Below are positions 1-42,953 of a stretch of 64,000 bases of DNA, one piece after another. Below the pieces are notes generated by a model. That model had not been told where the DNA came from. It was given only the letters and a program-made list of their open reading frames with translations, and ran no database searches. The position numbers and the translations under genes are program-made. Each line of letters starts with the position of its first letter. Position 1 is the stretch's first letter. Source of the DNA: Trypanosoma brucei (Eukaryota); NCBI GenBank assembly GCA_000002445.1, contig CH464491.1, forward strand, positions 288,001 through 352,000, in the 5' to 3' direction.

Positions 1-3000
1 AAGCAGCAATGAACGAGCATTCACATGAGCTTGCTAAACTGAAAGCATCCGATAGCCGCAGCTTCCTTGATCCTATGCCAGAAGGAGTGCCGTTGAGTGA
101 GCTTGAATTGGATAAGGATGAGAAGTTCAGCACCATGGAAGAGGAGCGTCGTAAGCTTATTGCTGAGGATCGTGAAGGTAATGCTGCACGCATTGCTGAA
201 TTAGAAGCAGCAATGAACGAGCATTCACATGAGCTTGCTAAACTGAAAGCATCCGATAGCCGCAGCTTCCTTGATCCTATGCCAGAAGGAGTGCCGTTGA
301 GTGAGCTTGAATTGGATAAGGATGAGAAGTTCAGCACCATGGAAGAGGAGCGTCGTAAGCTTATTGCTGAGGATCGTGAAGGTAATGCTGCACGCATTGC
401 TGAATTAGAAGCAGCAATGAACGAGCATTCACATGAGCTTGCTAAACTGAAAGCATCCGATAGCCGCAGCTTCCTTGATCCTATGCCAGAAGGAGTGCCG
501 TTGAGTGAGCTTGAATTGGATAAGGATGAGAAGTTCAGCACCATGGAAGAGGAGCGTCGTAAGCTTATTGCTGAGGATCGTGAAGGTAATGCTGCACGCG
601 TTGCTGAACTAGAAGCTGCAATGAACGAGCATTCACATGAGCTTGCTAAACTGAAAGCATCCGATAGCCGCAGCTTCCTTGATCCTATGCCAGAAGGAGT
701 GCCGTTGAGTGAGCTAGGATTGGATAAGGATGAGAAGTTCAGCACCATGGAAGAGGAGCGTCGTAAGCTTATTGCTGAGGATCGTGAAGGTAATGCTGCA
801 CGCATTGCTGAACTAGAAGCAGCAATGAACGAGTATTCACATGAGCTTGCTAAACTGAAAGCATCCGATAGCCGCAGCTTCCTTGATCCTATGCCAGAAG
901 GAGTGCCGTTGAGTGAGCTAGGATTGGATAAGGATGAGAAGTTCAGCACCATGGAAGAGGAGCGTCGTAAGCTTATTGCTGAGGATCGTGAAGGTAATGC
1001 TGCACGCATTGCTGAATTAGAAGCAGCAATGAACGAGCATTCACATGAGCTTGCTAAACTGAAAGCATCCGATAGCCGCAGCTTCCTTGATCCTATGCCA
1101 GAAGGAGTGCCGTTGAGTGAGCTTGAATTGGATAAGGATGAGAAGTTCAGCACCATGGAAGAGGAGCGTCGTAAGCTTATTGCTGAGGATCGTGAAGGTA
1201 ATGCTGCACGCATTGCTGAATTAGAAGTTGCAATGAACGAGCATTCACATGAGCTTGCTAAACTGAAAGCATCCGATAGCCGCAGCTTCCTTGATCCTAT
1301 GCCAGAAGGAGTGCCGTTGAGTGAGCTTGAATTGGATAAGGATGAGAAGTTCAGCACCATGGAAGAGGAGCGTCGTAAGCTTATTGCTGAGGATCGTGAA
1401 GGTAATGCTGCACGCATTGCTGAACTAGAAGCAGCAATGAACGAGCATTCACATGAGCTTGCTAAACTGAAAGCATCCGATAGCCGCAGCTTCCTTGATC
1501 CTATGCCAGAAGGAGTGCCGTTGAGTGAGCTTGAATTGGATAAGGATGAGAAGTTCAGCACCATGGAAGAGGAGCGTCGTAAGCTTATTGCTGAGGATCG
1601 TGAAGGTAATGCTGCACGCATTGCTGAACTAGAAGCTGCAATGAACGAGCATTCACATGAGCTTGCTAAACTGAAAGCATCCGATAGCCGCAGCTTCCTT
1701 GATCCTATGCCAGAAGGAGTGCCGTTGAGTGAGCTAGGATTGGATAAGGATGAGAAGTTCAGCACCATGGAAGAGGAGCGTCGTAAGCTTATTGCTGAGG
1801 ATCGTGAAGGTAATGCTGCACGCATTGCTGAATTAGAAGCAGCGATGAACGAGTATTCACATGAGCTTGCTAAACTGAAAGCATCCGATAGCCGCAGCTT
1901 CCTTGATCCTATGCCAGAAGGAGTGCCACTAAATGAGCTTGAATTGGACAAGGATGAGAAGTTCAGCACCATGGAAGAGGAGCGTCGTAAGCTTATTGCT
2001 GAGGATCGTGAAGGTAATGCTGCACGCATTGCTGAACTAGAAGCAGCAATGAACGAGTATTCACATGAGCTTGCTAAACTGAAAGCATCCGATAGCCGCA
2101 GCTTCCTTGATCCTATGCCAGAAGGAGTGCCACTAAATGAGCTTGAATTGGACAAGGATGAGAAGTTCAGCACCATGGAAGAGGAGCGTCGTAAGCTTAT
2201 TGCCGAGGATCGTGAAGGTAATGCTGCACGCATTGCTGAACTAGAAGCTGCAATGAACGAGCATTCACATGAGCTTGCTAAACTGAAAGCATCCGATAGC
2301 CGCAGCTTCCTTGATCCTATGCCAGAAGGAGTGCCGTTGAGTGAGCTTGAATTGGACAAGGATGAGAAGTTCAGCACCATGGAAGAGGAGCGTCGTAAGC
2401 TTATTGCTGAGGATCGTGAAGGTAATGCTGCACGCATTGCTGAATTAGAAGCAGCAATGAACGAGCATTCACATGAGCTTGCTAAACTGAAAGCATCCGA
2501 TAGCCGCAGCTTCCTTGATCCTATGCCAGAAGGAGTGCCGCTAAGTGAGCTTGAATTGGATAAGGATGAGAAGTTCAGCACCATGGAAGAGGAGCGTCGT
2601 AAGCTTATTGCTGAGGATCGTGAAGGTAATGCTGCACGCATTGCTGAACTAGAAGCAGCAATGAACGAGCATTCACATGAGCTTGCTAAACTGAAAGCAT
2701 CCGATAGCCGCAGCTTCCTTGATCCTATGCCAGAAGGAGTGCCGTTGAGTGAGCTAGGATTGGATAAGGATGAGAAGTTCAGCACCATGGAAGAGGAGCG
2801 TCGTAAGCTTATTGCTGAGGATCGTGAAGGTAATGCTGCACGCATTGCTGAATTAGAAGCAGCAATGAACGAGCATTCACATGAGCTTGCTAAACTGAAA
2901 GCATCCGATAGCCGCAGCTTCCTTGATCCTATGCCAGAAGGAGTGCCGTTGAGTGAGCTAGGATTGGATAAGGATGAGAAGTTCAGCACCATGGAAGAGG

Positions 3001-6000
3001 AGCGTCGTAAGCTTATTGCTGAGGATCGTGAAGGTAATGCTGCACGCATTGCTGAATTAGAAGCAGCAATGAACGAGCATTCACATGAGCTTGCTAAACT
3101 GAAAGCATCCGATAGCCGCAGCTTCCTTGATCCTATGCCAGAAGGAGTGCCGTTGAGTGAGCTTGAATTGGATAAGGATGAGAAGTTCAGCACCATGGAA
3201 GAGGAGCGTCGTAAGCTTATTGCTGAGGATCGTGAAGGTAATGCTGCACGCATTGCTGAATTAGAAGCAGCAATGAACGAGCATTCACATGAGCTTGCTA
3301 AACTGAAAGCATCCGATAGCCGCAGCTTCCTTGATCCTATGCCAGAAGGAGTGCCGTTGAGTGAGCTTGAATTGGATAAGGATGAGAAGTTCAGCACCAT
3401 GGAAGAGGAGCGTCGTAAGCTTATTGCTGAGGATCGTGAAGGTAATGCTGCACGCATTGCTGAACTAGAAGCAGCAATGAACGAGTATTCACATGAGCTT
3501 GCTAAACTGAAAGCATCCGATAGCCGCAGCTTCCTTGATCCTATGCCAGAAGGAGTGCCGTTGAGTGAGCTTGAATTGGATAAGGATGAGAAGTTCAGCA
3601 CCATGGAAGAGGAGCGTCGTAAGCTTATTGCTGAGGATCGTGAAGGTAATGCTGCACGCATTGCTGAATTAGAAGCAGCAATGAACGAGCATTCACATGA
3701 GCTTGCTAAACTGAAAGCATCCGATAGCCGCAGCTTCCTTGATCCTATGCCAGAAGGAGTGCCGTTGAGTGAGCTTGAATTGGACAAGGATGAGAAGTTC
3801 AGCACCATGGAAGAGGAGCGTCGTAAGCTTATTGCTGAGGATCGTGAAGGTAATGCTGCACGCATTGCTGAATTAGAAGCAGCAATGAACGAGCATTCAC
3901 ATGAGCTTGCTAAACTGAAAGCATCCGATAGCCGCAGCTTCCTTGATCCTATGCCAGAAGGAGTGCCGTTGAGTGAGCTTGAATTGGATAAGGATGAGAA
4001 GTTCAGCACCATGGAAGAGGAGCGTCGTAAGCTTATTGCTGAGGATCGTGAAGGTAATGCTGCACGCATTGCTGAACTAGAAGCAGCAATGAACGAGTAT
4101 TCACATGAGCTTGCTAAACTGAAAGCATCCGATAGCCGCAGCTTCCTTGATCCTATGCCAGAAGGAGTGCCGTTGAGTGAGCTTGAATTGGATAAGGATG
4201 AGAAGTTCAGCACCATGGAAGAGGAGCGTCGTAAGCTTATTGCTGAGGATCGTGAAGGTAATGCTGCACGCATTGCTGAATTAGAAGCAGCAATGAACGA
4301 GCATTCACATGAGCTTGCTAAACTGAAAGCATCCGATAGCCGCAGCTTCCTTGATCCTATGCCAGAAGGAGTGCCGTTGAGTGAGCTTGAATTGGATAAG
4401 GATGAGAAGTTCAGCACCATGGAAGAGGAGCGTCGTAAGCTTATTGCTGAGGATCGTGAAGGTAATGCTGCACGCATTGCTGAACTAGAAGCTGCAATGA
4501 ACGAGCATTCACATGAGCTTGCTAAACTGAAAGCATCCGATAGCCGCAGCTTCCTTGATCCTATGCCAGAAGGAGTGCCGTTGAGTGAGCTTGAATTGGA
4601 CAAGGATGAGAAGTTCAGCACCATGGAAGAGGAGCGTCGTAAGCTTATTGCTGAGGATCGTGAAGGTAATGCTGCACGCATTGCTGAACTAGAAGCTGCA
4701 ATGAACGAGCATTCACATGAGCTTGCTAAACTGAAAGCATCCGATAGCCGCAGCTTCCTTGATCCTATGCCAGAAGGAGTGCCGTTGAGTGAGCTAGGAT
4801 TGGATAAGGATGAGAAGTTCAGCACCATGGAAGAGGAGCGTCGTAAGCTTATTGCTGAGGATCGTGAAGGTAATGCTGCACGCATTGCTGAATTAGAAGC
4901 AGCGATGAACGAGTATTCACATGAGCTTGCTAAACTGAAAGCATCCGATAGCCGCAGCTTCCTTGATCCTATGCCAGAAGGAGTGCCGTTGAGTGAGCTT
5001 GAATTGGACAAGGATGAGAAGTTCAGCACCATGGAAGAGGAGCGTCGTAAGCTTATTGCCGAGGATCGTGAAGGTAATGCTGCACGCATTGCTGAACTAG
5101 AAGCTGCAATGAACGAGCATTCACATGAGCTTGCTAAACTGAAAGCATCCGATAGCCGCAGCTTCCTTGATCCTATGCCAGAAGGAGTGCCGTTGAGTGA
5201 GCTTGGATTGGATAAGGATGAGAAGTTCAGCACCATGGAAGAGGAGCGTCGTAAGCTTATTGCTGAGGATCGTGAAGGTAATGCTGCACGCATTGCTGAA
5301 CTAGAAGCAGCGATGAACGAGCATTCACATGAGCTTGCTAAACTGAAAGCATCCGATAGCCGCAGCTTCCTTGATCCTATGCCAGAAGGAGTGCCACTAA
5401 GTGAGCTAGGATTGGATAAGGATGAGAAGTTCAGCACCATGGAAGAGGAGCGTCGTAAGCTTATTGCTGAGGATCGTGAAGGTAATGCTGCACGCATTGC
5501 TGAACTAGAAGCAGCGATGAACGAGCATTCACATGAGCTTGCTAAACTGAAAGCGTCATATAGCCGCAGCTTCCTTGATCCTATGCCAGAAGGAGTGCCG
5601 TTGAGTGAGCTTGAATTGGATAAGGATGAGAAGTTCAGCACCATGGAAGAGGAGCGTCGTAAGCTTATTGCTGAGGATCGTGAAGGTAATGCAACACGCA
5701 TTGCTGAATTAGAAGCAGCAATGAACGAGCATTCACATGAGCTTGCTAAACTGAAAGCATCCGATAGCCGCAGCTTCCTTGATCCTATGCCAGAAGGAGT
5801 GCCGTTGAGTGAGCTTGAATTGGATAAGGATGAGAAGTTCAGCACCATGGAAGAGGAGCGTCGTAAGCTTATTGCTGAGGATCGTGAAGGTAATGCTGCA
5901 CGCATTGCTGAACTAGAAGCAGCGATGAACGAGCATTCACATGAGCTTGCTAAACTGAAAGCATCCGATAGCCGCAGCTTCCTTGATCCTATGCCAGAAG

Positions 6001-9000
6001 GAGTGCCGTTGAGTGAGCTTGAATTGGATAAGGATGAGAAGTTCAGCACCATGGAAGAGGAGCGTCGTAAGCTTATTGCTGAGGATCGTGAAGGTAATGC
6101 TGCACGCATTGCTGAACTAGAAGCAGCAATGAACGAGCATTCACATGAGCTTGCTAAACTGAAAGCATCCGATAGCCGCAGCTTCCTTGATCCTATGCCA
6201 GAAGGAGTGCCGTTGAGTGAGCTAGGATTGGATAAGGATGAGAAGTTCAGCACCATGGAAGAGGAGCGTCGTAAGCTTATTGCTGAGGATCGTGAAGGTA
6301 ATGCAACACGCATTGCTGAACTAGAAGCAGCAATGAACGAGCATTCACATGAGCTTGCTAAACTGAAAGCGTCATATAGCCGCAGCTTCCTTGATCCTAT
6401 GCCAGAAGGAGTGCCGTTGAGTGAGCTTGAATTGGACAAGGATGAGAAGTTCAGCACCATGGAAGAGGAGCGTCGTAAGCTTATTGCTGAGGATCGTGAA
6501 GGTAATGCAACACGTATCGCTGAATTAGAAGTTGCAATGAACGAGCATTCACATGAGCTTGCTAAACTGAAAGCATCCGATAGCCGCAGCTTCCTTGATC
6601 CTATGCCAGAAGGAGTGCCACTAAGTGAGCTTGAATTGGATAAGGATGAGAAGTTCAGCACCATGGAAGAGGAGCGTCGTAAGCTTATTGCCGATGATCG
6701 TGAAGGTAATGCTGCACGCATTGCTAGACTTGAGGAGAGGATGAACGAACTTTCCCGTGAACTCGCAAGAATGAAGTTGAAGGATCGCAGCTTCCTCGAT
6801 CCTATGCCAGAAGGAGTGCCGTTGAGTGAGCTTGAATTGGATAAGGATGAGAAGTTCAGCACCATGGAAGAGGAGCGTCGTAAGCTTATTGCTGAGGATC
6901 GTGAAGGTAATGCAACACGCATTGCTGAATTAGAAGCAGCAATGAACGAGCATTCACATGAGCTTGCTAAACTGAAAGCATCCGATAGCCGCAGCTTCCT
7001 TGATCCTATGCCAGAAGGAGTGCCACTAAGTGAGCTTGAATTGGATAAGGATGAGAAGTTCAGCACCATGGAAGAGGAGCGTCGTAAGCTTATTGCCGAT
7101 GATCGTGAAGGTAATGCTGCACGCATTGCTAGACTCGAGGAGAGGATGAACGAACTTTCCCGTGAACTCGCAAGAATGAAGTTGAAGGATCGCAGCTTCC
7201 TCGATCCTATGCCAGAAGGAGTGCCACTAAGTGAGCTTGAATTGGATAAGGATGAGAAGTTCAGCACCATGGAAGAGGAGCGTCGTAAGCTTATTGCTGA
7301 GGATCGTGAAGGTAATGCAACACGCATTGCTGAATTAGAAGTTGCAATGAACGAGCATTCACATGAGCTTGCTAAACTGAAAGCATCCGATAGCCGCAGC
7401 TTCCTTGATCCTATGCCAGAAGGAGTGCCGTTGAGTGAGCTTGAATTGGATAAGGATGAGAAGTTCAGCACCATGGAAGAGGAGCGTCGTAAGCTTATTG
7501 CTGAGGATCGTGAAGGTAATGCAACACGCATTGCTGAATTAGAAGTTGCAATGAACGAGCATTCACATGAGCTTGCTAAACTGAAAGCATCCGATAGCCG
7601 CAGCTTCCTTGATCCTATGCCAGAAGGAGTGCCGTTGAGTGAGCTTGAATTGGACAAGGATGAGAAGTTCAGCACCATGGAAGAGGAGCGTCGTAAGCTT
7701 ATTGCTGAGGATCGTGAAGGTAATGCAACACGCATTGCTGAATTAGAAGCAGCAATGAACGAGCATTCACATGAGCTTGCTAAACTGAAAGCATCCGATA
7801 GCCGCAGCTTCCTTGATCCTATGCCAGAAGGAGTGCCGTTGAGTGAGCTTGAATTGGATAAGGATGAGAAGTTCAGCACCATGGAAGAGGAGCGTCGTAA
7901 GCTTATTGCTGAGGATCGTGAAGGTAATGCAACACGCATTGCTGAATTAGAAGCAGCAATGAACGAGCATTCACATGAGCTTGCTAAACTGAAAGCATCC
8001 GATAGCCGCAGCTTCCTTGATCCTATGCCAGAAGGAGTGCCGTTGAGTGAGCTAGGATTGGATAAGGATGAGAAGTTCAGCACCATGGAAGAGGAGCGTC
8101 GTAAGCTTATTGCTGAGGATCGTGAAGGTAATGCAACACGCATTGCTGAACTAGAAGCAGCAATGAACGAGCATTCACATGAGCTTGCTAAACTGAAAGC
8201 ATCCGATAGCCGCAGCTTCCTTGATCCTATGCCAGAAGGAGTGCCGTTGAGTGAGCTTGAATTGGATAAGGATGAGAAGTTCAGCACCATGGAAGAGGAG
8301 CGTCGTAAGCTTATTGCTGAGGATCGTGAAGGTAATGCTGCACGCATTGCTGAACTAGAAGCTGCAATGAACGAGCATTCACATGAGCTTGCTAAACTGA
8401 AAGCATCCGATAGCCGCAGCTTCCTTGATCCTATGCCAGAAGGAGTGCCGTTGAGTGAGCTTGAATTGGATAAGGATGAGAAGTTCAGCACCATGGAAGA
8501 GGAGCGTCGTAAGCTTATTGCTGAGGATCGTGAAGGTAATGCTGCACGCATTGCTGAATTAGAAGCAGCAATGAAGGAGAATTNNNNNNNNNNNNNNNNN
8601 NNNNNNNNNNNNNNNNNNNNNNNNNNNNNNNNNNNNNNNNNNNNNNNNNNNNNNNNNNNNNNNNNNNNNNNNNNNNNNNNNNNTAAGCTTATTGCTGAGG
8701 ATCGTGAAGGTAATGCTGCACGCATTGCTGAATTAGAAGCAGCAATGAACGAGCATTCACATGAGCTTGCTAAACTGAAAGCATCCGATAGCCGCAGCTT
8801 CCTTGATCCTATGCCAGAAGGAGTGCCACTAAGTGAGCTTGAATTGGACAAGGATGAGAAGTTCAGCACCATGGAAGAGGAGCGTCGTAAGCTTATTGCT
8901 GAGGATCGTGAAGGTAATGCAACACGCATTGCTGAATTAGAAGCAGCAATGAACGAGCATTCACATGAGCTTGCTAAACTGAAAGCATCCGATAGCCGCA

Positions 9001-12000
9001 GCTTCCTTGATCCTATGCCAGAAGGAGTGCCGTTGAGTGAGCTTGAATTGGATAAGGATGAGAAGTTCAGCACCATGGAAGAGGAGCGTCGTAAGCTTAT
9101 TGCTGAGGATCGTGAAGGTAATGCTGCACGCATTGCTGAATTAGAAGTTGCAATGAACGAGCATTCACATGAGCTTGCTAAACTGAAAGCATCCGATAGC
9201 CGCAGCTTCCTTGATCCTATGCCAGAAGGAGTGCCGTTGAGTGAGCTTGAATTGGATAAGGATGAGAAGTTCAGCACCATGGAAGAGGAGCGCCGTAAGC
9301 TTATTGCTGAGGATCGTGAAGGTAATGCAACACGCATTGCTGAATTAGAAGTTGCAATGAACGAGCATTCACATGAGCTTGCTAAACTGAAAGCATCCGA
9401 TAGCCGCAGCTTCCTTGATCCTATGCCAGAAGGAGTGCCACTAAGTGAGCTAGGATTGGACAAGGATGAGAAGTTCAGCACCATGGAAGAGGAGCGCCGT
9501 AAGCTCATTGCTGAGGATCGTGAAGGTAATGCAACACGCATCGCTGAATTAGAAGTTGCAATGAACGAGTATTCACATGAGCTTGCTAAACTGAAAGCAT
9601 CCGATAGCCGCAGCTTCCTTGATCCTATGCCAGAAGGAGTGCCACTAAGTGAGCTTGAATTGGACAAGGATGAGAAGTTCAGCACCATGGAAGAGGAGCG
9701 TCGTAAGCTCATTGCTGAGGATCGTGAAGGTAATGCAACACGCATTTGTCGCTTGGAAAGGAAAATGGGGAGGCGTGTTGATAAGCTGGCTAAACTGAAA
9801 GCGTCATATAGCCGCAGCTTCCTTGATCCTATGCCAGAAGGAGTGCCACTAAATGAGCTTGAATTGGATAAGGATGAGAAGTTCAGCACCATGGAAGAGG
9901 AGCGTCGTAAGCTCATTGCTGAGGATCGTGAAGGTAATGCAACACGCATTGCTGAATTAGAAGTTGCAATGAACGAGCATTCACATGAGCTTGCTAAACT
10001 GAAAGCATCCGATAGCCGCAGCTTCCTTGATCCTATGCCAGAAGGAGTGCCACTAAGTGAGCTTGAATTGGATAAGGATGAGAAGTTCAGCACCATGGAA
10101 GAGGAGCGTCGTAAGCTTATTGCTGAGGATCGTGAAGGTAATGCAACACGCATTGCTGAATTAGAAGAGTGTATGAGTGCTCGAGTTCGGAATTTGGCTA
10201 TTTGTAAGTCTACTTTAGGTGGAGTGATTGTTGATGAGAGAATTGGTCTTGTTCCTTTGTATTTGTTACCGTTGGGGGAGGATTCGGTTTTGAGTTCGTT
10301 GACTTCTAAATTGGAATCTATGCGATGTGGTGGGTGTTTACCCGATAGTGTTGCTGTGCGTGATATCCAAGAACAAATTATATGTCGAGTAGAGAAATTG
10401 GCAGAAGTGTATTTAGAACATGAACTTGATTTTCTGGAAACTGTTGACGGAATTTCTGTTTCTCAGATCGCACTTTCTGATGACAAGGTGTTTTGTGAAA
10501 TGCAGCGGTCGTTGCGCCAGTTGAGAAAAAGTCCGGTAAGAAATGCAGAAGCCATACGGGATATTGAGTATGCGATGAATAATATCGTTCGTGAACTGTC
10601 GTCAAAACTATTACTGGAGGATTGTAGTTACCTGAATCAGTGTCCTCACGGCGTACCTCTTGCTGACTTACCGCTGGATAATCGGTTATTTCGCGAGATT
10701 GAATTGAAGAGAAGAAGATTAAAAGAGGATGACCCGTTAAAAAATGCGACGAGGATTAGAGAGTTGGAGATGAAATTGAATGATCATGCCGAGCGTTTGG
10801 CCGCGCTTATGTTAAGTGAGGAACGTGCTTTTCTTGAGCCATGCTCGCACGGTCTTCCCCTTAGTCGCCTTCAGTTGGGAGAGGATTCTTCCTTTCTTGC
10901 AATGGAAAGGGAAAGAAGGAAGTTATTGCGTGAAGGGGGTAAAGACAAAAACCGTATCAGGTATCTCGAAGAATGCATGAGGGAACATGTCAGCAATGTC
11001 GCCCTCTCTCTAATTTCCTGGCAGGATGTTCAATTTCATGAAGCTAACCATTCTGTAGCGGAGATGTGGCCGCGAATCGGTGAGTTGTACCCTGAAGGAA
11101 TCCGAAACTCTGTGTTTCCGGAAATAACACAGCCGGGCGATACTTCATCTGCGCCTGGTGAACTTGGCTATTTAGCACCTTTCATTGCCGCTCTCAGTCA
11201 ACACCCGCCTCTAATTCATCGGCTTCTGGAAACGAAAACACATCCCGTTAATGGTCCATATTCTTTCATCTTTTTTGATCCGAACAGCAACCCTGTTCGT
11301 GTTGACATTGATGACCGTGTGCCAGTGGATGCGAAGTGTGAGCCCAAGTTTACACGCGTGCCACACCGGTCTTGGTACCCGCTGCTGCTGGAGAAGGCAT
11401 ATGCGAAGTTTGTTGGTGGGTACGCAAAGCTCGACCAGTGCACACCACACGAAACCCTCCATGACCTAACGGGCCGTCCAGTGACACATATCCCTTTTGA
11501 TGAGAAGCGAGCAGATGGAATCAAAATTGGGGACTTCCGATCTGTGAAATTCTGGAAGGGGATTAAAAGGGATCTTGCGGCTGGAGATGTTATTATGGCA
11601 ATGACGAACGGTAGTGTTCCCGACGGCCTTCACTCTCAATGTAGTTACGCTCTCCTTAGTGTAATCGAAACTGTGCATGAATCGAATGATGTCTCTGACA
11701 TCGTGATCAAATTACACAACTGCTACTACGATAGCCCGACATACGACGGCCCACTGTGTAACGATGATGATAACTGGACCGATGGTTTGAAGAGACTTTG
11801 CCATTATAATCCTGAGGAGGATGCACTTTACATACCTGTTCCTGTGTTTCTGCGTAACTTCTCGAGCATGCAGCGCTGTCACATAAACTGTGGCGACCGT
11901 CTGACTGCGCCTGGTGAGTGGACTGGGGTAAGCTGTGGAGGAAACCCGAAGTTCACAACTTTCCGGAACAACCCCATCTATCTTGTGGAAAACAAAACCT

Positions 12001-12914
12001 CCCGTCCCGTTACCATTCTTGCTGAGCTGCGGCATCAAGCCCCTGTGTTTTTTGATGCCGATGGGGTAAATCACTATCATCAGTCTGGGCTGGCGCTCTT
12101 ACAGCAGCATCATGTTTCTGAAATTATTACGTGGCTCCTTACTAGTACGACGCACCGCTTTTTGCAAAAAGGTATTTTAATGGATACACGCGAGATTTGC
12201 TCAAGGATGGAAATACCTCCGAATACCACGTGCTATCTCGTCCCATATACGTTGAAGCGAGGTAGCTACGGCAAGTTCAATGTGTCGCTGTATCCTGCAT
12301 CTTCTGACATTACTTTGGTCCCTTTGGCTGCTTTGTGTAATTCGCACGTGGTAATTAACGTTGATGTTTTGCTGAAACCGGGGAGCCGGGAGGGGAGAAG
12401 AGTCGACTTTTCGGTGCACGAAGCTTGTGATGTACACTTGCTGCTGCATCAGAATAAAATTACTGACCCTGCTAGTGTCAAAAGGGGTAACCTCCTTGCG
12501 GAGGACGAGGTTTCTATGTCTGTTAATGACGAGCGGATGTCAGTCCTGGCGACCACTCGTGACACCTCCAATGCGCGTGAGCAGTCCTTGGCTTTGGAGC
12601 TTCCAACCGCTGGTCGGTATTCCGTTTTTATTGAGTGCCGAAGCCGACTCAGAACTGGTGAATGTCCTTGTACTTTGTCTATATATTCGCCGAGCCGCGC
12701 CAAAACCAGGTTGGCTCCCCTTCCGCCTAGTGGGACGCAATCGGTACTTCCAGCAATTGCACCTCGTCAGCCTCCCCGGCAGCCCGCACTTTATGGGAGA
12801 AGGTTGGATCAGCCTCCTCTCAGTGCAGGCACGGTGAGGGCCGCCGCTGCTACGCTTCCTGTAGGCTTAGTTCCAGCACCTCCAAAGTCCGGCACGACAC
12901 CGCAGCGTAGATGA
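1..12914 (+). CDS. ClpGM6: Giant calpain-like cytoskeletal protein with 68-aa GM6-type tandem repeats (5' partial; reading phase begins at nt 3, first in-window Met codon at 9). At least 50 near-identical 68-aa units, then 4 degenerate units (10173-10990) and a C-terminal calpain-like module (10990-12914).
   Basis: Single 4301-codon ORF in the supplied track. 204-bp period read directly (MNEH Met codons at 9, 213, 417 ... 8571, then 8745 ... 9969). The C-terminal part has calpain domain II/III-like sequence (WYPLLLEKAYAKF, KLHNCYYDSPTYDGPL, GGNPKFTTFRNNPIYLV). A 68-aa repeat plus calpain-like ends matches the published description of T. brucei ClpGM6/GM6 antigen. The symbol is assigned from memory, not from a search. 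Confidence 0.8.
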   Translation, partial: AAMNEHSHELAKLKASDSRSFLDPMPEGVPLSELELDKDEKFSTMEEERRKLIAEDREGNAARIAELEAAMNEHSHELAKLKASDSRSFLDPMPEGVPLSELELDKDEKFSTMEEERRKLIAEDREGNAARIAELEAAMNEHSHELAKLKASDSRSFLDPMPEGVPLSELELDKDEKFSTMEEERRKLIAEDREGNAARVAELEAAMNEHSHELAKLKASDSRSFLDPMPEGVPLSELGLDKDEKFSTMEEERRKLIAEDREGNAARIAELEAAMNEYSHELAKLKASDSRSFLDPMPEGVPLSELGLDKDEKFSTMEEERRKLIAEDREGNAARIAELEAAMNEHSHELAKLKASDSRSFLDPMPEGVPLSELELDKDEKFSTMEEERRKLIAEDREGNAARIAELEVAMNEHSHELAKLKASDSRSFLDPMPEGVPLSELELDKDEKFSTMEEERRKLIAEDREGNAARIAELEAAMNEHSHELAKLKASDSRSFLDPMPEGVPLSELELDKDEKFSTMEEERRKLIAEDREGNAARIAELEAAMNEHSHELAKLKASDSRSFLDPMPEGVPLSELGLDKDEKFSTMEEERRKLIAEDREGNAARIAELEAAMNEYSHELAKLKASDSRSFLDPMPEGVPLNELELDKDEKFSTMEEERRKLIAEDREGNAARIAELEAAMNEYSHELAKLKASDSRSFLDPMPEGVPLNELELDKDEKFSTMEEERRKLIAEDREGNAARIAELEAAMNEHSHELAKLKASDSRSFLDPMPEGVPLSELELDKDEKFSTMEEERRKLIAEDREGNAARIAELEAAMNEHSHELAKLKASDSRSFLDPMPEGVPLSELELDKDEKFSTMEEERRKLIAEDREGNAARIAELEAAMNEHSHELAKLKASDSRSFLDPMPEGVPLSELGLDKDEKFSTMEEERRKLIAEDREGNAARIAELEAAMNEHSHELAKLKASDSRSFLDPMPEGVPLSELGLDKDEKFSTMEEERRKLIAEDREGNAARIAELEAAMNEHSHELAKLKASDSRSFLDPMPEGVPLSELELDKDEKFSTMEEERRKLIAEDREGNAARIAELEAAMNEHSHELAKLKASDSRSFLDPMPEGVPLSELELDKDEKFSTMEEERRKLIAEDREGNAARIAELEAAMNEYSHELAKLKASDSRSFLDPMPEGVPLSELELDKDEKFSTMEEERRKLIAEDREGNAARIAELEAAMNEHSHELAKLKASDSRSFLDPMPEGVPLSELELDKDEKFSTMEEERRKLIAEDREGNAARIAELEAAMNEHSHELAKLKASDSRSFLDPMPEGVPLSELELDKDEKFSTMEEERRKLIAEDREGNAARIAELEAAMNEYSHELAKLKASDSRSFLDPMPEGVPLSELELDKDEKFSTMEEERRKLIAEDREGNAARIAELEAAMNEHSHELAKLKASDSRSFLDPMPEGVPLSELELDKDEKFSTMEEERRKLIAEDREGNAARIAELEAAMNEHSHELAKLKASDSRSFLDPMPEGVPLSELELDKDEKFSTMEEERRKLIAEDREGNAARIAELEAAMNEHSHELAKLKASDSRSFLDPMPEGVPLSELGLDKDEKFSTMEEERRKLIAEDREGNAARIAELEAAMNEYSHELAKLKASDSRSFLDPMPEGVPLSELELDKDEKFSTMEEERRKLIAEDREGNAARIAELEAAMNEHSHELAKLKASDSRSFLDPMPEGVPLSELGLDKDEKFSTMEEERRKLIAEDREGNAARIAELEAAMNEHSHELAKLKASDSRSFLDPMPEGVPLSELGLDKDEKFSTMEEERRKLIAEDREGNAARIAELEAAMNEHSHELAKLKASYSRSFLDPMPEGVPLSELELDKDEKFSTMEEERRKLIAEDREGNATRIAELEAAMNEHSHELAKLKASDSRSFLDPMPEGVPLSELELDKDEKFSTMEEERRKLIAEDREGNAARIAELEAAMNEHSHELAKLKASDSRSFLDPMPEGVPLSELELDKDEKFSTMEEERRKLIAEDREGNAARIAELEAAMNEHSHELAKLKASDSRSFLDPMPEGVPLSELGLDKDEKFSTMEEERRKLIAEDREGNATRIAELEAAMNEHSHELAKLKASYSRSFLDPMPEGVPLSELELDKDEKFSTMEEERRKLIAEDREGNATRIAELEVAMNEHSHELAKLKASDSRSFLDPMPEGVPLSELELDKDEKFSTMEEERRKLIADDREGNAARIARLEERMNELSRELARMKLKDRSFLDPMPEGVPLSELELDKDEKFSTMEEERRKLIAEDREGNATRIAELEAAMNEHSHELAKLKASDSRSFLDPMPEGVPLSELELDKDEKFSTMEEERRKLIADDREGNAARIARLEERMNELSRELARMKLKDRSFLDPMPEGVPLSELELDKDEKFSTMEEERRKLIAEDREGNATRIAELEVAMNEHSHELAKLKASDSRSFLDPMPEGVPLSELELDKDEKFSTMEEERRKLIAEDREGNATRIAELEVAMNEHSHELAKLKASDSRSFLDPMPEGVPLSELELDKDEKFSTMEEERRKLIAEDREGNATRIAELEAAMNEHSHELAKLKASDSRSFLDPMPEGVPLSELELDKDEKFSTMEEERRKLIAEDREGNATRIAELEAAMNEHSHELAKLKASDSRSFLDPMPEGVPLSELGLDKDEKFSTMEEERRKLIAEDREGNATRIAELEAAMNEHSHELAKLKASDSRSFLDPMPEGVPLSELELDKDEKFSTMEEERRKLIAEDREGNAARIAELEAAMNEHSHELAKLKASDSRSFLDPMPEGVPLSELELDKDEKFSTMEEERRKLIAEDREGNAARIAELEAAMKENXXXXXXXXXXXXXXXXXXXXXXXXXXXXXXXXXXKLIAEDREGNAARIAELEAAMNEHSHELAKLKASDSRSFLDPMPEGVPLSELELDKDEKFSTMEEERRKLIAEDREGNATRIAELEAAMNEHSHELAKLKASDSRSFLDPMPEGVPLSELELDKDEKFSTMEEERRKLIAEDREGNAARIAELEVAMNEHSHELAKLKASDSRSFLDPMPEGVPLSELELDKDEKFSTMEEERRKLIAEDREGNATRIAELEVAMNEHSHELAKLKASDSRSFLDPMPEGVPLSELGLDKDEKFSTMEEERRKLIAEDREGNATRIAELEVAMNEYSHELAKLKASDSRSFLDPMPEGVPLSELELDKDEKFSTMEEERRKLIAEDREGNATRICRLERKMGRRVDKLAKLKASYSRSFLDPMPEGVPLNELELDKDEKFSTMEEERRKLIAEDREGNATRIAELEVAMNEHSHELAKLKASDSRSFLDPMPEGVPLSELELDKDEKFSTMEEERRKLIAEDREGNATRIAELEECMSARVRNLAICKSTLGGVIVDERIGLVPLYLLPLGEDSVLSSLTSKLESMRCGGCLPDSVAVRDIQEQIICRVEKLAEVYLEHELDFLETVDGISVSQIALSDDKVFCEMQRSLRQLRKSPVRNAEAIRDIEYAMNNIVRELSSKLLLEDCSYLNQCPHGVPLADLPLDNRLFREIELKRRRLKEDDPLKNATRIRELEMKLNDHAERLAALMLSEERAFLEPCSHGLPLSRLQLGEDSSFLAMERERRKLLREGGKDKNRIRYLEECMREHVSNVALSLISWQDVQFHEANHSVAEMWPRIGELYPEGIRNSVFPEITQPGDTSSAPGELGYLAPFIAALSQHPPLIHRLLETKTHPVNGPYSFIFFDPNSNPVRVDIDDRVPVDAKCEPKFTRVPHRSWYPLLLEKAYAKFVGGYAKLDQCTPHETLHDLTGRPVTHIPFDEKRADGIKIGDFRSVKFWKGIKRDLAAGDVIMAMTNGSVPDGLHSQCSYALLSVIETVHESNDVSDIVIKLHNCYYDSPTYDGPLCNDDDNWTDGLKRLCHYNPEEDALYIPVPVFLRNFSSMQRCHINCGDRLTAPGEWTGVSCGGNPKFTTFRNNPIYLVENKTSRPVTILAELRHQAPVFFDADGVNHYHQSGLALLQQHHVSEIITWLLTSTTHRFLQKGILMDTREICSRMEIPPNTTCYLVPYTLKRGSYGKFNVSLYPASSDITLVPLAALCNSHVVINVDVLLKPGSREGRRVDFSVHEACDVHLLLHQNKITDPASVKRGNLLAEDEVSMSVNDERMSVLATTRDTSNAREQSLALELPTAGRYSVFIECRSRLRTGECPCTLSIYSPSRAKTRLAPLPPSGTQSVLPAIAPRQPPRQPALYGRRLDQPPLSAGTVRAAAATLPVGLVPAPPKSGTTPQRR
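9..10172 (+). repeat. In-frame tandem array of a 204-bp unit (two 201-bp variant units), about 50 copies, interrupted by a 100-N gap
   Basis: Unit boundaries phase exactly at 204-bp steps from 9 to 8571. After the gap, phase restarts at 8745. Units are more than 97% identical even at synonymous sites. Confidence 0.95.
8584..8683. other. Assembly gap (100 N) inside the repeat array. The true copy number is unknown.
   Basis: Run of n. Repeat phase is discontinuous across it. The last unit before the gap reads MKEN instead of MNEH, which suggests a low-quality contig end. Confidence 0.95.
11021..11875 (+). repeat. Dispersed near-identical coding block shared by the three calpain-like genes. Copy A of three, with copies at 32005-32859 and in part at 36318-36960.
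   Basis: Direct nucleotide comparison, e.g. caggatgttcaatttcatgaagctaacc at 11021 and at 32005. catcccgttaatggtccatattctttc at 11233, 32217 and 36318. Identical antisense ORFs in the track (11216..11524, 32199..32591, 36250..36690). Confidence 0.9.
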
Positions 12915-15462: not shown

Positions 15463-18400
15463 ATGAATTACCAAGCAATTACCGAAATTCCAGATAGCAA
15501 TACGATATTCCATGACACCATTTTTATGAGAAACAACAAACACGTCTCGGAGCAATGGATTCGTATTGGCGAATTGTACCCCAATGGTGCGAAGGAATCA
15601 TTGCTCCCGGAGACGTTTGCACGCGAACAGTTCGGACAAGGAAGTCACTATGAGTGCTTCATGCTTTCTGCCCTCGCCACTTTAGTAAAATTCCCCGACA
15701 TCATTCGGAACTGCTTCGTGTCGAGGAATGTGCGGCGTGACGGGAGGTACACTTTTCAGTTCTTTCGTGACAAGGAATGGGTGAAGGTTGAAATTGATGA
15801 CTCTGTTATGCTTGAGGATGATGAAGTTTTGTTCATCCGATCACCCACTAGTCATTGGTGGCCGCTACTGTTTGAGAAGGCTTATGCGAAATTCTACACC
15901 AGCTACGACAATTTGGAGGGTTGTACCTTACAGGAGGCGTACCATGACTTAACTGGCAACCCCGTGCTCAACATCCCCATGGACGCGAGGCTTGCCAAGG
16001 CTGCAGGTGTGGATGTGACTGGAGGTCAGTATTGGCTTGACCTCGCACAGAAGCTGCAATCCGGCCAGTTTGTTGGTTCGCTGCTGACGAGGGAAACGGA
16101 CCTTGAGTCGATGGGCTTGCAGAGTGAGCAACAATACGGGATACTAGAGATTTTTTCGCTAACTGGGACATCATCTGTAAGCGACATTGTGATTCACCTA
16201 TACAACCCATTCGAGGACGAGGAATTCACGTACAAAGGCCCGCTGAACAGTAAGGACACGGAGTGGACCCCCAAACTCCGTGAAAAGTATAACGTGGATG
16301 ATACGCACTCCATATTTCTTCCGCTACACGTTGCCCTGAAGATCGTAAATTCGGTGCAACTTTGCTACATATCCCCTATTGATGGTGACGCGACGTATTT
16401 TGATGATGAGTGGAAGGGTGAAACTGCGGGAGGGAACCCCACGAGTGTAACATGGCGCAAGAACCCCCTATACTGCGTCAGGAACGCTGGGATCAACCCC
16501 GTGGAACTGGTTGTCGTGATTAAGCAGAAGGATCAACGACGTTACATGTCTTCTGAGGAGCGAACCATGTACCTTCAATGTGGCATTGTTGTTGTTCAGA
16601 GTACCACAGTCACACAAATACCGACATATTTTGTAACAGGGAACAATCACAAAGCAATACACAAGAGTTTGTTCCTAAACTCTCGTGAAGTGTCCAGTTT
16701 CGTTCGGATACCACCTAATTCCTTGTGCTACCTTGTACCTTCTTGCATGAAGAAGGGAGCGGAGAGTGCATTTACGCTCGCACTGTACCGAGTGAAACTT
16801 CAAGACTACAGCAATATTCTGATTAAGAAACTTGAGGTCCCCTCTATGGATTGGGGACATTGTGCCATTGGAAAGGTTACGTTGGAAACAAAAGTGAAGG
16901 AACGGGTTGATTTTTTTGTTGACTGCCCTACTGACATTCACATTTTGATGCATCAAGAAAAACCGTTTGTGAACAAAGTTGGTGGTGATATTACAACTCG
17001 GGATTACGTTGGTGTCTACCTTTATGATGACACGGACCGTAAGATTGGAGGTGTGCACGCTGCGACGAATTTCAGGGAAACAAGTGTCTTGCATCGCCTT
17101 CCTCGTAGTGGTCGTTATGCTATTTCAATTACGTGTCCCCGGGCAAGTGGTGAAGTACCCATTGCTCTCACAATTGTTGGTTCTCCTGATGCTAATGTTC
17201 GTATTGTTGAGGCTCCTGATGATGCCTCCATGTTTGATGATGAGGATGATATTGCAGAGGGTGATGAGGATGCTACTGTTTCTAATCCCATTGACTACAT
17301 TCCTGTTGCTGGTGGAGGGCAGGTGTTCACTGAGGTACCCGATAGTACGGTCCCATTTGAAGATAAACGTTTCATGGTTGATAATAAGATTATGACGAAT
17401 GAACCGTGGATCCACATTGGTGACCTTTATCCTGAGGGAAAGACGCGCTCACTTTTGCCGGAGCGTCTGAGTCGTGAGCAGTTTGAGCAGGGTGAACACT
17501 TCGAGTGCTGTTGTCTGACCGCTTTTGCAGCGCTGGTGGAGCACCACCCCAACGTAATTCGTGACGCGTTTGTGACGAAGGCTGTACGACGTGACGGACG
17601 GTACACGTTCCGGTTCCACCGCTACGGTCAGTGGGTGAAGGTGGAGATTGATGATCGTATTCCCCTTCTTGGTGGGAAAACTTTATTCTGTCGATCATCT
17701 GATGGTTATTGGTGGCCACTACTACTAGAGAAGGCGTATGCTAAGTTCTACACACTATACCAAAATATTGAGGGATGTACGCTGCGGGAACTGTTTTACG
17801 ACCTAACAGGGCTTCCTGTGCTTAGCATTCCGATGGAGTTGAAACTCGCGAAGGCTGTACTGTGTGATGTTGATGATGTGAGTTTTTGGGTTGAGCTCAG
17901 TGAGGGTCTGAAGGATTGTGCGTGTGCTGCCGTTGCACGCCCCGGTTTCGATGACACCCTTGGTTTGTCCAATGGGCAAGAGTACGCTGTCCTTGATGTG
18001 GTATCGTTAACGGATGGTGAGGCCTCTTCCATATCTGATCTTGTTGTAAAACTTCATAATCCGTTTCTGGAGACTGAGTACAAAGGCCCTATGAATGCAA
18101 GCGATGCTGCGTGGTCGTCTGAGCTGCGTACCCGTCTATGTCCGGAGCGACGGGATACTATCTACATTCCCGTGGAAGTTTTCTGCAATGCATTTCTCAC
18201 TGTGGAGAAAGTTATGGTGCGTGGTCTTATTGTTCCCGGGTGGCAATTCAACAGTGAATGGGGTGAGGGCACGAACGGTGGCAATCCAACACTTGTGACG
18301 TGGCGTGAGAACCCCATTTACGTTGTGCAGAACACTGCGGATACCCCGTTACAGATTATTGCAATGATTGGGCAACCTGATCAGCGTCGCGTGCTACACC

Positions 18401-21400
18401 TTCTCCCCGAGCAAGAGGTAAACTATGTTCAATGTGGGTTGGTTCTTTCTCAGTGTACATGTAGCAATCCTGTACCAACATATTTGGTGACGAGTAACAA
18501 CCATCGTGTTGTGCACAAGGGTCTGTTCGTGAACTTTCGTGAGTCGGCGAATATTGTTACCATTCCAGCTAACTCTATGTCGTACCTAATTCCAAGCGCG
18601 ATGTTTCGTGACAAAACGAAGTTTCTTCTCTCATACTGGTTTCAAAAATTGCCTGACATGAAATTTATCAAAATCAGTCGTATCAATGTGAGTGTTGCGC
18701 GGTCACTACCTGCAATTGAGCACCTTGAGCTGCATAACCATGAAAAGAAACGCGTGGATTTTCTGGTTGATGTTCCCACTGATATTCACATTCTGCTTCG
18801 TCAGGAGAAACCTTGTGTGACGGTCCGTACGCACGATGCTATGGCTGATGACTTCCTAGGGATATATCTGTACAACGAGGATGAAAAGCGTATTGATGGT
18901 GTGACCGCTGCGACGAACTACAGGGAAATGGGGCTTGTTCACCGGCTTGCCACTGCGGGGAGATACGCTCTGTCGATCACGTGTCCTCGGGGAACCGGTG
19001 TTGTGCCGTGCCGTGTGGAGATCGTTGGCGTGGAAGATGCGAAGGTGCGTATCACCGACCCACCTGAGGATGCTGGTAATCTGTGTGAGGTTGACCTTCG
19101 CTTTCTGGGTTCTGAAGCTGAGGGTGTGCCTCTTGAAGACCTTCCGCTCGATAGTGACGCCGATTTGCAAGCTATATTGGAAGAACTGAGACGCCTGCAC
19201 GGAGACATTGATGCGAATGCTGAGCCAATTGCAAAACATGAGAGGATGATGAGTGACCGAGTTCATAAGATGGCGAGGCAGCTTCTTGCTAAGGATCGTT
19301 CGAAGTACTTACCAGGATACGATCTTCAAACGGTTAATTCCATACTTGACGCGGAGCCACATTTTGTCGTTTTAGAGCGCGATCGGTACCACCTAAAGGG
19401 TGATCCCAGGAATGCCACGAAGGTTCGGAATGTAGAGAGAAGCCTTCTTACTCTCGCTAATGAAATTCTGGAAAAACACGATGACCCTGACTTATCTTTC
19501 CTTGGAGCCGAGGTGGAAGGAATTCCCACCCTGGATCTCACTCTGATGAGCGACTCTTCATTTTCTGAGATGGCACGTGAGCGCATGCAATTAAAGCGGG
19601 ATCCCATTGCTAATGCGAGTCGTTTGGCTGAGGTTGAAGATAGTATGGTGGCACGTGCGAATGCTATTGCCAAGGAGATGCATTTGAGAGAGCGGCGATA
19701 TCTGAACCCTGAGCCTGAGGGTGTCCCCCTTGAGTTGCTTCCTTTAAACGAGGACGAAGTTGTGAGTGAGAAGGAGGACCGCCTCCGTGCGCTGAATCGT
19801 AAGGAGCGAAAAGACGAGAAACTGTTACGGAGTCTTGAGGACGTGATAGCGGACCGTGTACACGAGATCGCGAGGGAGCTGAAGCTGAGTGAACGTGATC
19901 TGTTCCTTGATCCCACTCCAGGAGGTTTCCCTGTAGCGCAGCTTCCGCTGGACGAAGACGATGTGTTTCATTCACTCGAAGTGGAGCGACTGCAACTGCG
20001 ACTGCGTCAGGATTCCCTTGCGAATAAGACATCAGAGATCAAAGAACTTGAAAGTTGGTTGAACCGTCGAGCGTGTGAACTTGCGCGTGTGAAGGTAGAG
20101 GAGGGTCGAGCGTTTCTAGACCCTGAACCTCTGGGGTTCCCACTTACCGACCTTAACCTTGACGGAGATAGTGAGTTTGTCAAGCTGGAATCGGAACTTC
20201 GTAAGTTGCGTTGGGAGCCGCGTGTGAACAGCACTGCTATGAGGACTGTGGAGGAGGATATTGCTCGCGTTGTATACCGCATAGCACTGAGGAAAACGTG
20301 TCTCGATCGTGACTATCTTGACGCGGAATATGAGGGTCGACCTGTGCAGGGGTTGCCTCTGAATGATAGTAAGGAGGTGCTTGCGATGGAGACGAGGCGC
20401 CGGGTGTTAATTAACGCGAAGGCTGACCGTGACGAAATCGGTGTTGCAGAGAATATGATACGTGATGCTGTGCGTGAGATCGCTCGCGCTCTGAATGTGG
20501 GCGAGCGCTTGGACTACTTGGAGCCATGCCCAAGAGGTGTCCCTGTAGAAGACCTCCCCCTTGACATGGATACGGAATTCCACGAGCTTGAGGTGCATCG
20601 GCAACGTCTCAAGTGTGATGCGAAGAAACAGGACACAGTAATAATGGATGTGGAGCGTGCACTGAATGATCGTGCGGAAGCCCTTGCGAGGGAGCACTTG
20701 TCGAGTGACCGTGGTTACTTGGACCCAGCATCTGTTGGTGTGCCGCTTCGTTTGCTACCACTTGATAGCGATAGTGTGTTCCAGGAGCTTGAAATTAAAC
20801 GTGCGCTACTGAAGAAGAACCCTCAGAGGAACGGACGTGCCATCTCGGCTTTGGAGGGTGGCCTGAACGAGCGTGCACACGTTCTTGCTACGGAAATGAA
20901 GCACGCGGAGCGATCGAAATTTATGGACCCTAACCCTGGTGGTATTGCCATTGAGGATGTTCCTATTGATAACGACGAGGTTTTTTGTGATCTTGAAATT
21001 CGTCGGTTTGGTTTGTGCGAGGACCCGCATGCTAATATAGCAGCGATACGAAATCTTGAAGATGCGATGAATGAGAGGGTGATCGAACTGGCTGATAAGA
21101 TGCGTTGTGAGATCCGCATGTTTCTGGACCCGATGCCATTGGGGGTGTCCTTAGATGAGCTGCCCCTTGACAATAACGAGAGCTTTGTTGCGAAAGAAGC
21201 TGAACTGCACAAGCTTCGGAAGGACCTGCGGGCAAATGGTGCCGATGTTGCTTTGCTGAAGTCTGACTTGAACGAGTTAGCCAAGCAGATGGCGGCGGAG
21301 ATGATTTCTAAAGATCGTGCTTTTCTCTTCCCTGAGCCTGAGGGTCGTCTACTGGAGGAATTGCCTCTAGATAGCGATAAGGAGTTTCGTTCTCTTGAAA

Positions 21401-32859: not shown

Positions 32860-32959
32860 NNNNNNNNNNNNNNNNNNNNNNNNNNNNNNNNNNNNNNNNN
32901 NNNNNNNNNNNNNNNNNNNNNNNNNNNNNNNNNNNNNNNNNNNNNNNNNNNNNNNNNNN
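32860..32959. other. Assembly gap (100 N)
   Basis: Run of n. The flanking sequence has an ambiguous base (n at 33011) and a 1-nt indel relative to its duplicate. Confidence 0.95.
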
Positions 32960-41166: not shown

Positions 41167-41185
41167 GATATAAATAAATAAATAA

Positions 41186-41220
<35 letters not shown>
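41167..41220. repeat. (AAAT)n then (TA)n microsatellite that starts directly after the RSP3 stop codon
   Basis: gatataaataaataaataaataaatatatatatatatatatatatatatata read directly. Confidence 0.9.

Positions 41221-42292: not shown

Positions 42293-42295
<3 letters not shown>

Positions 42296-42322
<27 letters not shown>
42296..42322. repeat. (TA)n microsatellite
   Basis: atatatatatatatatatatatata in the intergenic region. Confidence 0.9.
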
Positions 42323-42326
<4 letters not shown>

Positions 42327-42930: not shown

Positions 42931-42953
42931 GTTGTTTTTTTTTTTGCTACAAG
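42931..42953 (+). promoter_or_regulatory. Poly-pyrimidine tract plus AG: putative SL acceptor for the Vps-like gene
   Basis: gttgtttttttttttgctacaag sits about 95 nt upstream of ATG 43050. Confidence 0.3.

Follow-up and report, generated by a model that had tools for sequence, protein, structure and literature searches.

Gene content of the ClpGM6 locus

We analyzed a 64,000-nt stretch of Trypanosoma brucei DNA (assembly GCA_000002445.1, contig CH464491.1, positions 288,001 to 352,000 of the forward strand; in the following called the window, with coordinates counted from its first letter). The large open reading frames (ORFs) of the window lie on the plus strand throughout, and three giant ones are found within its first 38 kb. 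The window is identified by its sequence content as a chromosomal locus of the T. brucei group in which the ClpGM6 gene (g1) is followed by two paralogs (g2 and g3) within one directional gene cluster. Its identity to T. b. equiperdum IVM-t1, T. equiperdum OVI, and T. b. gambiense DAL972 amounts to 99.0–99.6%. The C-terminal calpain-like modules of the three genes, which are the subject of this analysis, form a mosaic of identical and strongly diverged segments. An initial inspection of the sequence (in the following called the original prediction) had explained this pattern by recent, recurrent, short-tract gene conversion or, alternatively, by chimeric assembly across paralogs.

The first gene, g1, carries the GM6 repeat array (204-bp or 68-aa units) at 1–10170, with its 5′ end and N-terminal part lying outside of the window. 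Periodicity analysis resolved ~50 near-identical 204-bp units with 93–97% identity. The peptides of the published anti-ClpGM6 antibodies occur 44 times (KASDSRSFLDPMPE) and 47 times (ERRKLIAEDREGN) in the g1 translation. The features that identify ClpGM6 were found in g1, namely the repeat array, these epitope peptides, and, on the C-terminal side of the array, a flanking calpain-like (CysPc) domain. The passages matched in the ClpGM6 study (PMC4121973) describe localization to the flagellum attachment zone (FAZ) and a morphogenesis phenotype as experimental properties of this protein. A 100-N gap at 8584–8683 within the g1 repeats matches the point at which ClpGM6 has been published as two gene models in the T. 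brucei reference, Tb11.57.0008/Tb11.47.0036 (Tb927.11.1090/1100).

The C-terminal module of g1 extends from 11019 to 12914, where it ends with the stop codon, and consists of a CysPc domain followed by a domain III-like tail. The second gene, g2 (15463–32859, truncated by a gap), begins with two N-terminal CysPc domains (plus domain III), continues with ~4,000 amino acids of degenerate DUF7623 repeats, and enters its C-terminal module at 32002. The third gene, g3 (32960–37993), is truncated by the same gap at its 5′ side and ends with a C-terminal module at 36101–37993, as delimited by self-BLAST, domain profiles, and comparison with T. b. equiperdum. All three genes are located on the plus strand, and the repeats of these giant genes match the DUF7623 profile.

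Based on profile searches, all three are predicted to encode calpain-like proteins of the Peptidase_C2/CysPc superfamily (kinetoplastid CALP type). The PF00648 profile matched the g1 and g3 modules with an E-value of 5.5e-21 each (75 bits, cut-off 23.8) and the g2 N-terminus with 4.3e-71. Domain III (PF01067) was recognized at the g2 N-terminus (41.8 bits) and marginally in the g3 module (21.8 bits vs. a cut-off of 21); with E ≤ 0.001 as the limit, the g1 module gave no match to it. The best match of the module among PDB sequences is calpain-9 (1ZIV, E = 2e-6). Aligned with calpain-9, the module lacks the “DC” of the GELGDCW motif and has Cys (QCSYAL) in place of the His of GHAYS, while the Asn is kept; hence, the catalytic triad Cys-His-Asn, which is the hallmark of active calpains and not of the calpain-like class as such, is incomplete. 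With neither the catalytic Cys nor the His in place, the modules are predicted to be calpain-like pseudo-proteases. A lack of the catalytic triad is also stated for ClpGM6 in the matched passages of its published description (PMC4121973).

Six segments make up the mosaic

A three-way alignment of the modules yielded six segments (S1 to S6, given in g1 coordinates), each with its own pattern of identity and divergence. In S1 (11019–11238; g2 32002–32221, g3 36101–36320), g1 and g2 are the same (0–1 differences in 220 nt), and g3, which differs at 105 of 218 positions, shows no relationship to them in its DNA sequence. S2 (11239–11460; g2 32222–32443, g3 36321–36542) is identical in all three genes (0/222) and also across all four T. 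brucei-group assemblies examined. S3 (11461–11642; g2 32444–32625, g3 36543–36724) is the central patch, in which g2 and g3 are the same and g1 deviates at 43 of 182 positions. S4 (11643–12037; g2 32626–32859, truncated; g3 36725–37119) is again shared, without any difference between g1 and g3 (0/395) or, as far as g2 reaches before the gap, in g2 (0/234). In S5 (12038–12326; g3 37120–37410), g1 and g3 differ at 107 of 289 positions and the g2 and g3 genes of T. b. equiperdum are identical (0/289). The tail S6 (12327 onwards) differs between all three genes (~55%, segment-wise alignment).

These numbers bear out most of what had been noticed initially. The g1 and g2 modules, described as identical at both ends and different in the center, are 95.1% identical between 11019–11876 and 32002–32859, and according to self-BLAST and the three-way alignment every difference except the one at 11054 falls into 11461–11642. 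That g3 carries the g2 version of the patch is reflected in the 100% identity of 32222–32859 to 36321–36958 over 638 bp (self-BLAST). This match belongs to a longer tract, 36321–37410, over which g3 equals the g2 module with one difference in 1090 bp within T. b. equiperdum. The statements that g3 equals g1 from the patch down to about 12030/37110, and that it differs from g1 upstream and in the tail, agree with the values for S4, S1, and S6, and the peptides quoted were correct. The position 32859, taken as the end of the g2 module, is instead the edge of a 100-N scaffold gap (32860–32959).

The longest identical runs between g1 and g3 are 395 and 222 bp in an alignment of 1877 sites with 566 differences. 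The longest run obtained in 20,000 permutations was 44 bp (P < 1/20,000), which excludes chance as the origin of the two runs. The mosaic pattern is real and lies far above chance expectation.

The same mosaics in independent assemblies

The N runs of the window comprise the two 100-N scaffold gaps at 8584–8683 and 32860–32959; in addition, there is a single N at 33011, 52 bp past the second gap, within the g3 coding sequence. Since both contig ends at the second gap extend ~640 bp into repeats, they bear the signature of an assembler halting in unresolved duplicated sequence. The last 647 bp of the g2 stretch that is duplicated in g3 (26631–27277, plus strand) match 32960–33605 at 99.5% (self-BLAST).

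Such a locus invites the suspicion that the mosaics are chimeras or a collapsed consensus of reads from different paralogs, and that the genome contains fewer distinct modules. The locus is indeed hard to assemble, with two gaps in the window, one of them exactly at the end of the visible g2 module, and contig ends that run into repeats. Several other assemblies are affected as well. In T. b. gambiense DAL972 (FN554974.1:306845–327843), the GM6 repeats are collapsed and lead via 100 N straight into g3, and the sequence of window 36788–37617 is duplicated on either side of a second gap. The T. equiperdum OVI assembly (CZPT02001622.1) joins a g1 fragment to g3 via 10 N, and the T. theileri and T. 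cruzi assemblies are broken at this locus as well (for T. cruzi, see PMC3214072). Because DAL972 and OVI are collapsed or chimeric at the locus, we used them solely for g3, which both confirm, and for one g1 fragment of OVI (window 11204–11531, 100% identity), which confirms the linkage of S1, S2, and the first part of S3 in g1.

The deciding comparison is that with T. b. equiperdum IVM-t1 (CM010682.1:268220–326924), for which three overlapping loci were merged into 58,705 bp with zero N. This stretch is colinear with window 8684–32859 at 99.0% identity (202 mismatches), carries 13,103 bp at the position of the gap that are lacking in the window, and then rejoins window 32960–51220 at 98.2%. 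From S1 to S6, the g1 genes of the window and of T. b. equiperdum differ at 1/220, 0/222, 1/182, 0/395, 0/289, and 1/585 positions. Within T. b. equiperdum, the differences from S1 to S5 are 1/220, 0/222, 43/182, 1/395, and 107/289 between g1 and g2 and 104/218, 0/222, 0/182, 1/395, and 0/289 between g2 and g3. Each combination of S1, S3, and S5 types thus recurs almost base for base in a gap-free assembly of a strain that is ~1% divergent and has 13.1 kb of additional sequence. All three mosaics being present in an independent assembly, chimeric assembly, the alternative offered by the original prediction, is rejected for the mosaic itself, though the assembly of the window is incomplete. Two further observations speak against an artefact, namely that g2 has its own tail with an ortholog in T. 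congolense and that a comparable mosaic exists in T. conorhini. We consider an assembly origin of the mosaics very improbable.

In IVM-t1, whose assembly is built from long reads, the giant genes are annotated as consecutive ORFs (for g2, 2333, 1386, 1641, and 603 amino acids), presumably because of indel errors or frameshifts; compared with the window there are ~17 gap openings per 24 kb.

By N-run scan and comparison with T. b. equiperdum, the gap at 32860–32959 hides ~13.1 kb. The hidden sequence comprises the rest of the g2 module, the g2 tail and stop codon, the intergenic region, and ~11.1 kb of the N-terminal part of g3. The T. b. equiperdum g3 opens with an 11.8-kb near-copy (99.1–99.8%) of the N-terminal calpain domains and first repeats of g2. 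This shared region corresponds to 15484–27277 in the window and 29353–41144 in the merged T. b. equiperdum locus, and its g3 copy lies almost wholly within the gap of the window. The earlier description of the repeats as otherwise highly diverged is therefore only partly true, as it does not apply to this near-copy or to its visible end at 26631–27277 and 32960–33605.

We also considered whether g2 and g3 could represent the two haplotypes of a single gene, arranged one after the other. This was rejected, as the regions that separate the shared segments (27278–32221 and 33606–36320) have no similarity at the DNA level and only ~33% repeat-level protein identity, and as g2 and g3 lie in tandem on one gap-free T. 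b. equiperdum contig. Likewise discarded were a g2 “stop” at 32967 and a g3 “ATG” at 32804, both artefacts of translation through N, a bacterial-style reading of the ORF list, and the minus-strand ORFs within g2, which are spurious. A search of the protein database found no exact copy of the g1, g2, or g3 proteins for the strain of the window; the match that led to the identification was a T. b. equiperdum fragment of 603 amino acids.

Old paralogs with young identical tracts

To date the identical tracts relative to the genes that contain them, we compared the modules with those of other trypanosomes. The tail of g1 is 47–49% identical to proteins of T. theileri, T. conorhini, T. grayi, and T. 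rangeli, and the tails of g2 and g3 reach 25–32% to the same proteins. For the g2 tail, a T. congolense protein reaches 52% identity. A search for a g3-specific ortholog yielded none, as no protein retrieved matched S1 or the tail of g3 above 33–51%. The neighbor-joining (NJ) tree of S6 grouped the g1 types (bootstrap 94) and the types of the last gene in the array (in the following called “last” types; bootstrap 68), and the NJ tree of S5 likewise grouped the “last” types (bootstrap 84). Since the tails and S5 side with distinct orthologs among other trypanosomes, the paralogy must be ancient. The comparisons identify the three genes as old duplicates, each with its own tail, of which g1 and g2 have recognizable orthologs in other trypanosomes.

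When g1 is compared with g3, the synonymous divergence (dS) amounts to 1.40 in S5 and to 0.48 in S3. In S2 and S4 taken together, there is not a single difference in 617 bp, including ~137 synonymous sites. Purifying selection alone would offer a simple reason why the CysPc core has stayed identical between the paralogs, and S2 and S4 are indeed the most conserved protein segments across species. It does not account for the lack of synonymous differences, however, and the synonymous-site data refute it. Furthermore, orthologs of other species differ by 22–27% in S2 and by 22–34% over S2 and S4 at the nucleotide level, and in S1, g1 and g2 are the same in spite of ~31–34% divergence from the orthologs. 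We therefore give this explanation practically no weight. Tracts that are identical without any synonymous difference were homogenized recently, for which purifying selection is insufficient.

Recurrent homogenization in strains and species

If conversion is recurrent, variants that distinguish strains should be shared by the paralogs within a strain. In the window stretch 22044–27277 (5.2 kb, three sequences available), 35 variable sites separate the strains, with T. b. equiperdum g2 and g3 agreeing against the window g2, 6 separate the genes, and 4 behave otherwise. In the 647 bp available for all four g2 and g3 sequences, four sites separate the strains, and both paralogs agree at each of them. 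Within the module, the sites 11486, 11894, 12203, 12251, and 12263 carry variants common to g2 and g3 of T. b. equiperdum; at 11894, both differ from g1. At site 11642, the boundary between S3 and S4 is shifted between the g1 genes of the window and of T. b. equiperdum.

The same core tract is affected in other species. Between the g1-type module of T. conorhini and its module adjacent to RSP3, whose contig begins just before S2, only 6 of 222 positions (3%) differ in S2, compared with 56 of 182 in S3, and S4 contains short near-identical sub-tracts. With the last gene of T. melophagium standing in for the g2 and g3 modules of its sister species T. theileri, in which the locus contains large N runs, the divergence from the g1 type of T. 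theileri is 10% in S2 and 32–37% in S3 and S5. The NJ tree of S2 groups the sequences by species with bootstrap 100, including the T. conorhini and the T. theileri/T. melophagium pairs. In the S4 tree, T. brucei and T. conorhini are supported with 98–99 and the T. theileri/T. melophagium pair with 66. The divergence of the paralogs in S2 amounts to 0% in T. brucei, 3% in T. conorhini, and 10% between T. theileri and T. melophagium, compared with 22–27% between orthologs, which is the pattern of concerted evolution.

The strain variants shared by g2 and g3, together with the homogenization of the same core tract in other lineages, indicate that conversion has been recurrent. At this locus, homogenization of the CysPc core has thus occurred repeatedly, with the most extensive tracts in T. 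brucei. As to the original prediction of recent, recurrent, short-tract gene conversion, homogenization has been both recent and recurrent, but the term short-tract does not hold throughout, as g2 and g3 have ~11.8 kb in common.

In T. theileri (NBCO01000005.1:362251–385163), the gene order is the same, with a g1-type C-terminal module followed by a calpain-like gene of 6146 amino acids, and the repeats are interrupted by N runs of kilobase size. The product of the 6146-aa gene contains a third Peptidase_C2 match followed by more DUF7623 repeats and may represent a fused model of g2 and g3.

Diverged islands within the central patch

The central patch had been described as one block. It is real, but internally it is a micro-mosaic: two diverged islands, S3a (11484–11531, 16 of 48 positions) and S3b (11571–11621, 24 of 51), flank 39 identical bases (11532–11570). 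The islands bear old motifs specific to the paralogs. The S3a peptide reads KRA[ED]G[IL]K[IM]GDF in g1-type genes and is conserved across Trypanosoma. In the g2, g3, and “last” types, it reads [RK]LA[ED]AAN[TI]GDF across Trypanosoma, and a similar form is present in Strigomonas. Among the T. brucei paralogs, no position differs in the 39 bp between S3a and S3b, although orthologs differ at 15–18 of these positions, a range that becomes 14–18 when the paralogs of other species are included. With an identical center and islands that remained type-specific, homogenization has crossed the patch while both islands kept their type.

Judging from the calpain-9 alignment, S3 covers the junction of two subdomains, reaching from the last part of IIa into the first part of IIb. 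The persistence of the islands could result from selection for a paralog-specific function or from a mismatch-dense heteroduplex that was restored rather than converted, leaving a discontinuous tract. More specifically, the islands at the hinge of the two CysPc subdomains might be specificity determinants that set ClpGM6 apart from its neighbors and are protected by selection because their replacement is deleterious, a possibility that we put forward only tentatively and rate as somewhat doubtful.

Probable gene conversion between tandem paralogs

Taken together, the best overall explanation is that old tandem paralogs have repeatedly been homogenized by interlocus gene conversion, to which we assign a probability of roughly 0.85. 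The exchange would be a non-allelic homologous recombination between tandem copies that are 21–25 kb apart in the same transcription unit. At least three tracts would be required. One would connect g2 and g3 over ~1090 bp of the module (S2 to S5) and ~11.8 kb of the 5′ part, a second g1 and g2 over S1 and S2 (442 bp), and a third g1 with g2 and g3 over S4 (395 bp) and the 39-bp center of S3. The strongly conserved CysPc core (S2 and S4) probably supplies the homology that seeds the exchange, and the molecular pathway may be homologous recombination of the RAD51 type. The match of the S3 and S5 type of g2 and g3 to the g2-like ortholog of T. congolense suggests a transfer from g2 to g3.

Part of the pattern could also have arisen by recent duplication or unequal crossing-over. 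In that case, one crossover between g1 and g3 would have produced the g2 module as a plain hybrid, the identity of the 5′ parts of g2 and g3 would be the trace of a young segmental duplication, and repeated non-reciprocal transfers would be superfluous. Indeed, g2 equals g1 up to S2 and g3 from S2 on, as would result from one crossover within the 222-bp shared tract, and the 11.8-kb identity starts near the start codon and stops abruptly at 27277/33605. A single crossover, however, leaves unexplained why g1 equals g3 in S2, in the 39-bp center of S3, and in S4, with diverged islands in between, and why g2 has its own tail past 12326. It also leaves unexplained the strain-specific variants common to g2 and g3 and the independent homogenization of S2 in other species. 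We regard this scenario as unlikely to be the full explanation, while unequal crossing-over may have contributed to some of the events.

Several points weigh against repeated gene conversion. The analysis is based on assemblies, and in both of them the 100% identities and the co-variation of g2 and g3 by strain may be inflated by consensus building or polishing of near-identical repeats, above all over the 11.8-kb region, which is spanned by few reads. The g2 gene of the window is visible only up to the gap, and a single module site (11486) could be scored in all four g2 and g3 sequences. Demonstrably unconverted are only the two ~50-bp islands and not the whole patch; the orthology of the islands is supported chiefly by short protein motifs, and in the nucleotide tree of the entire S3, the three T. 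brucei genes still form one group (bootstrap 99). The 11.8-kb identity of g2 and g3 could stem from a recent segmental duplication instead of conversion.

Genes and sequences downstream of g3

Downstream of the array, 40168–61509 contain genes that are syntenic and conserved across Trypanosoma, encoding RSP3 (PF06098), a Pep3/Vps18-like protein, an unannotated protein of 718–721 amino acids, and a protein kinase. Several T. brucei-group assemblies share the RSP3 sequence at 100% identity. The region between g3 and RSP3 (38001–40000) is AT-rich, with a GC content of 35.5% compared with ~46–48% elsewhere, contains long T runs, and resembles a typical trypanosome region between coding sequences or an untranslated region. 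A short inverted repeat (41175–41236 and 42282–42342; ~40–60 bp, 80–88% identical) lies in the intergenic region downstream of RSP3.

Relation to known systems and significance

Concerted evolution is known from tandem gene arrays of T. brucei, with “mixed dynamics” in which orthology is partially retained (Jackson 2007, PMC1855330; PMC4413820). The arrays in PMC1855330 resemble the present locus in that tandem paralogs lie in one polycistronic unit, with some parts more alike within a species than between orthologs and other parts orthologous, and gene conversion and unequal crossing-over were proposed there as the mechanisms. They differ in that the units at the ClpGM6 locus are giant genes of 16–18 kb or larger with only partial homology, and that the mosaic can be followed within a single domain down to islands of ~50 bp. 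The word “calpain” is absent from the main text of that paper.

Another close counterpart is the H49/calpain cluster of T. cruzi (Galetovic et al. 2011, PMC3214072), which is syntenic and located upstream of RSP3. It shares the architecture of two N-terminal CysPc domains, 68-aa-type repeats, and a C-terminal CysPc with domain III, and its contigs are likewise broken by N regions. The CysPc domains of that cluster group together with 100% bootstrap, and conversion or unequal crossover has been proposed for the H49 repeats (PMC3214072). That study treats the homogenization of the 68-aa repeats and not a mosaic of the C-terminal module, and has neither a breakpoint map nor a cross-strain test. 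With the matched passages of the ClpGM6 papers (Hayes et al. 2014, PMC4121973; for the Tb927.11.1090/1100 models, PMC9981465), g1 shares the GM6 repeats and both antibody peptides, as well as the interruption by a gap inside the repeats that they describe for the reference genome. These passages make no mention of g2, g3, the second gap, or an exchange between C-terminal modules. In our full-text literature searches, we found no description of a mosaic or conversion of the C-terminal module, nor of the second gap.

The pattern also recalls the VSG genes of T. brucei, which undergo segmental (mosaic) gene conversion, with partial segments copied between paralogs by homologous recombination, a process that PMC4413820 also mentions. 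VSG mosaics generate diversity, at subtelomeric or expression sites and under immune selection. Here, in contrast, the outcome is the homogenization of cytoskeletal genes on a core chromosome. While concerted evolution in trypanosome tandem arrays is known, the C-terminal modules of the ClpGM6 locus are a new, well-documented example of it.

The practical consequences concern gene models and the specificity of reagents at the ClpGM6 locus, and the general interest is modest. The gene models downstream of ClpGM6 are wrong in this assembly, with g2 lacking its real C-terminus and g3 lacking ~11 kb of 5′ sequence. As the missing sequence of g3 is nearly identical to g2, this affects tagging, the specificity of RNA interference (RNAi), and the proteomic assignment of calpain-like proteins of the FAZ and cytoskeleton. 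A probe, RNAi fragment, or peptide derived from 11239–12037, the islands excepted, is unable to separate ClpGM6 from its neighbors.

Beyond that, with its clean pattern and resolved breakpoints, the locus exemplifies how concerted evolution affects portions of very large genes that are homologous only in part. If the islands are indeed protected by selection, conversion would repeatedly homogenize their surroundings in several Trypanosoma lineages, in T. brucei also including the 39 bp between them, and the islands would mark a paralog-specific binding surface of pseudo-proteases in the FAZ. Such small conserved islands nominate candidate residues that may define the function of the individual paralogs.

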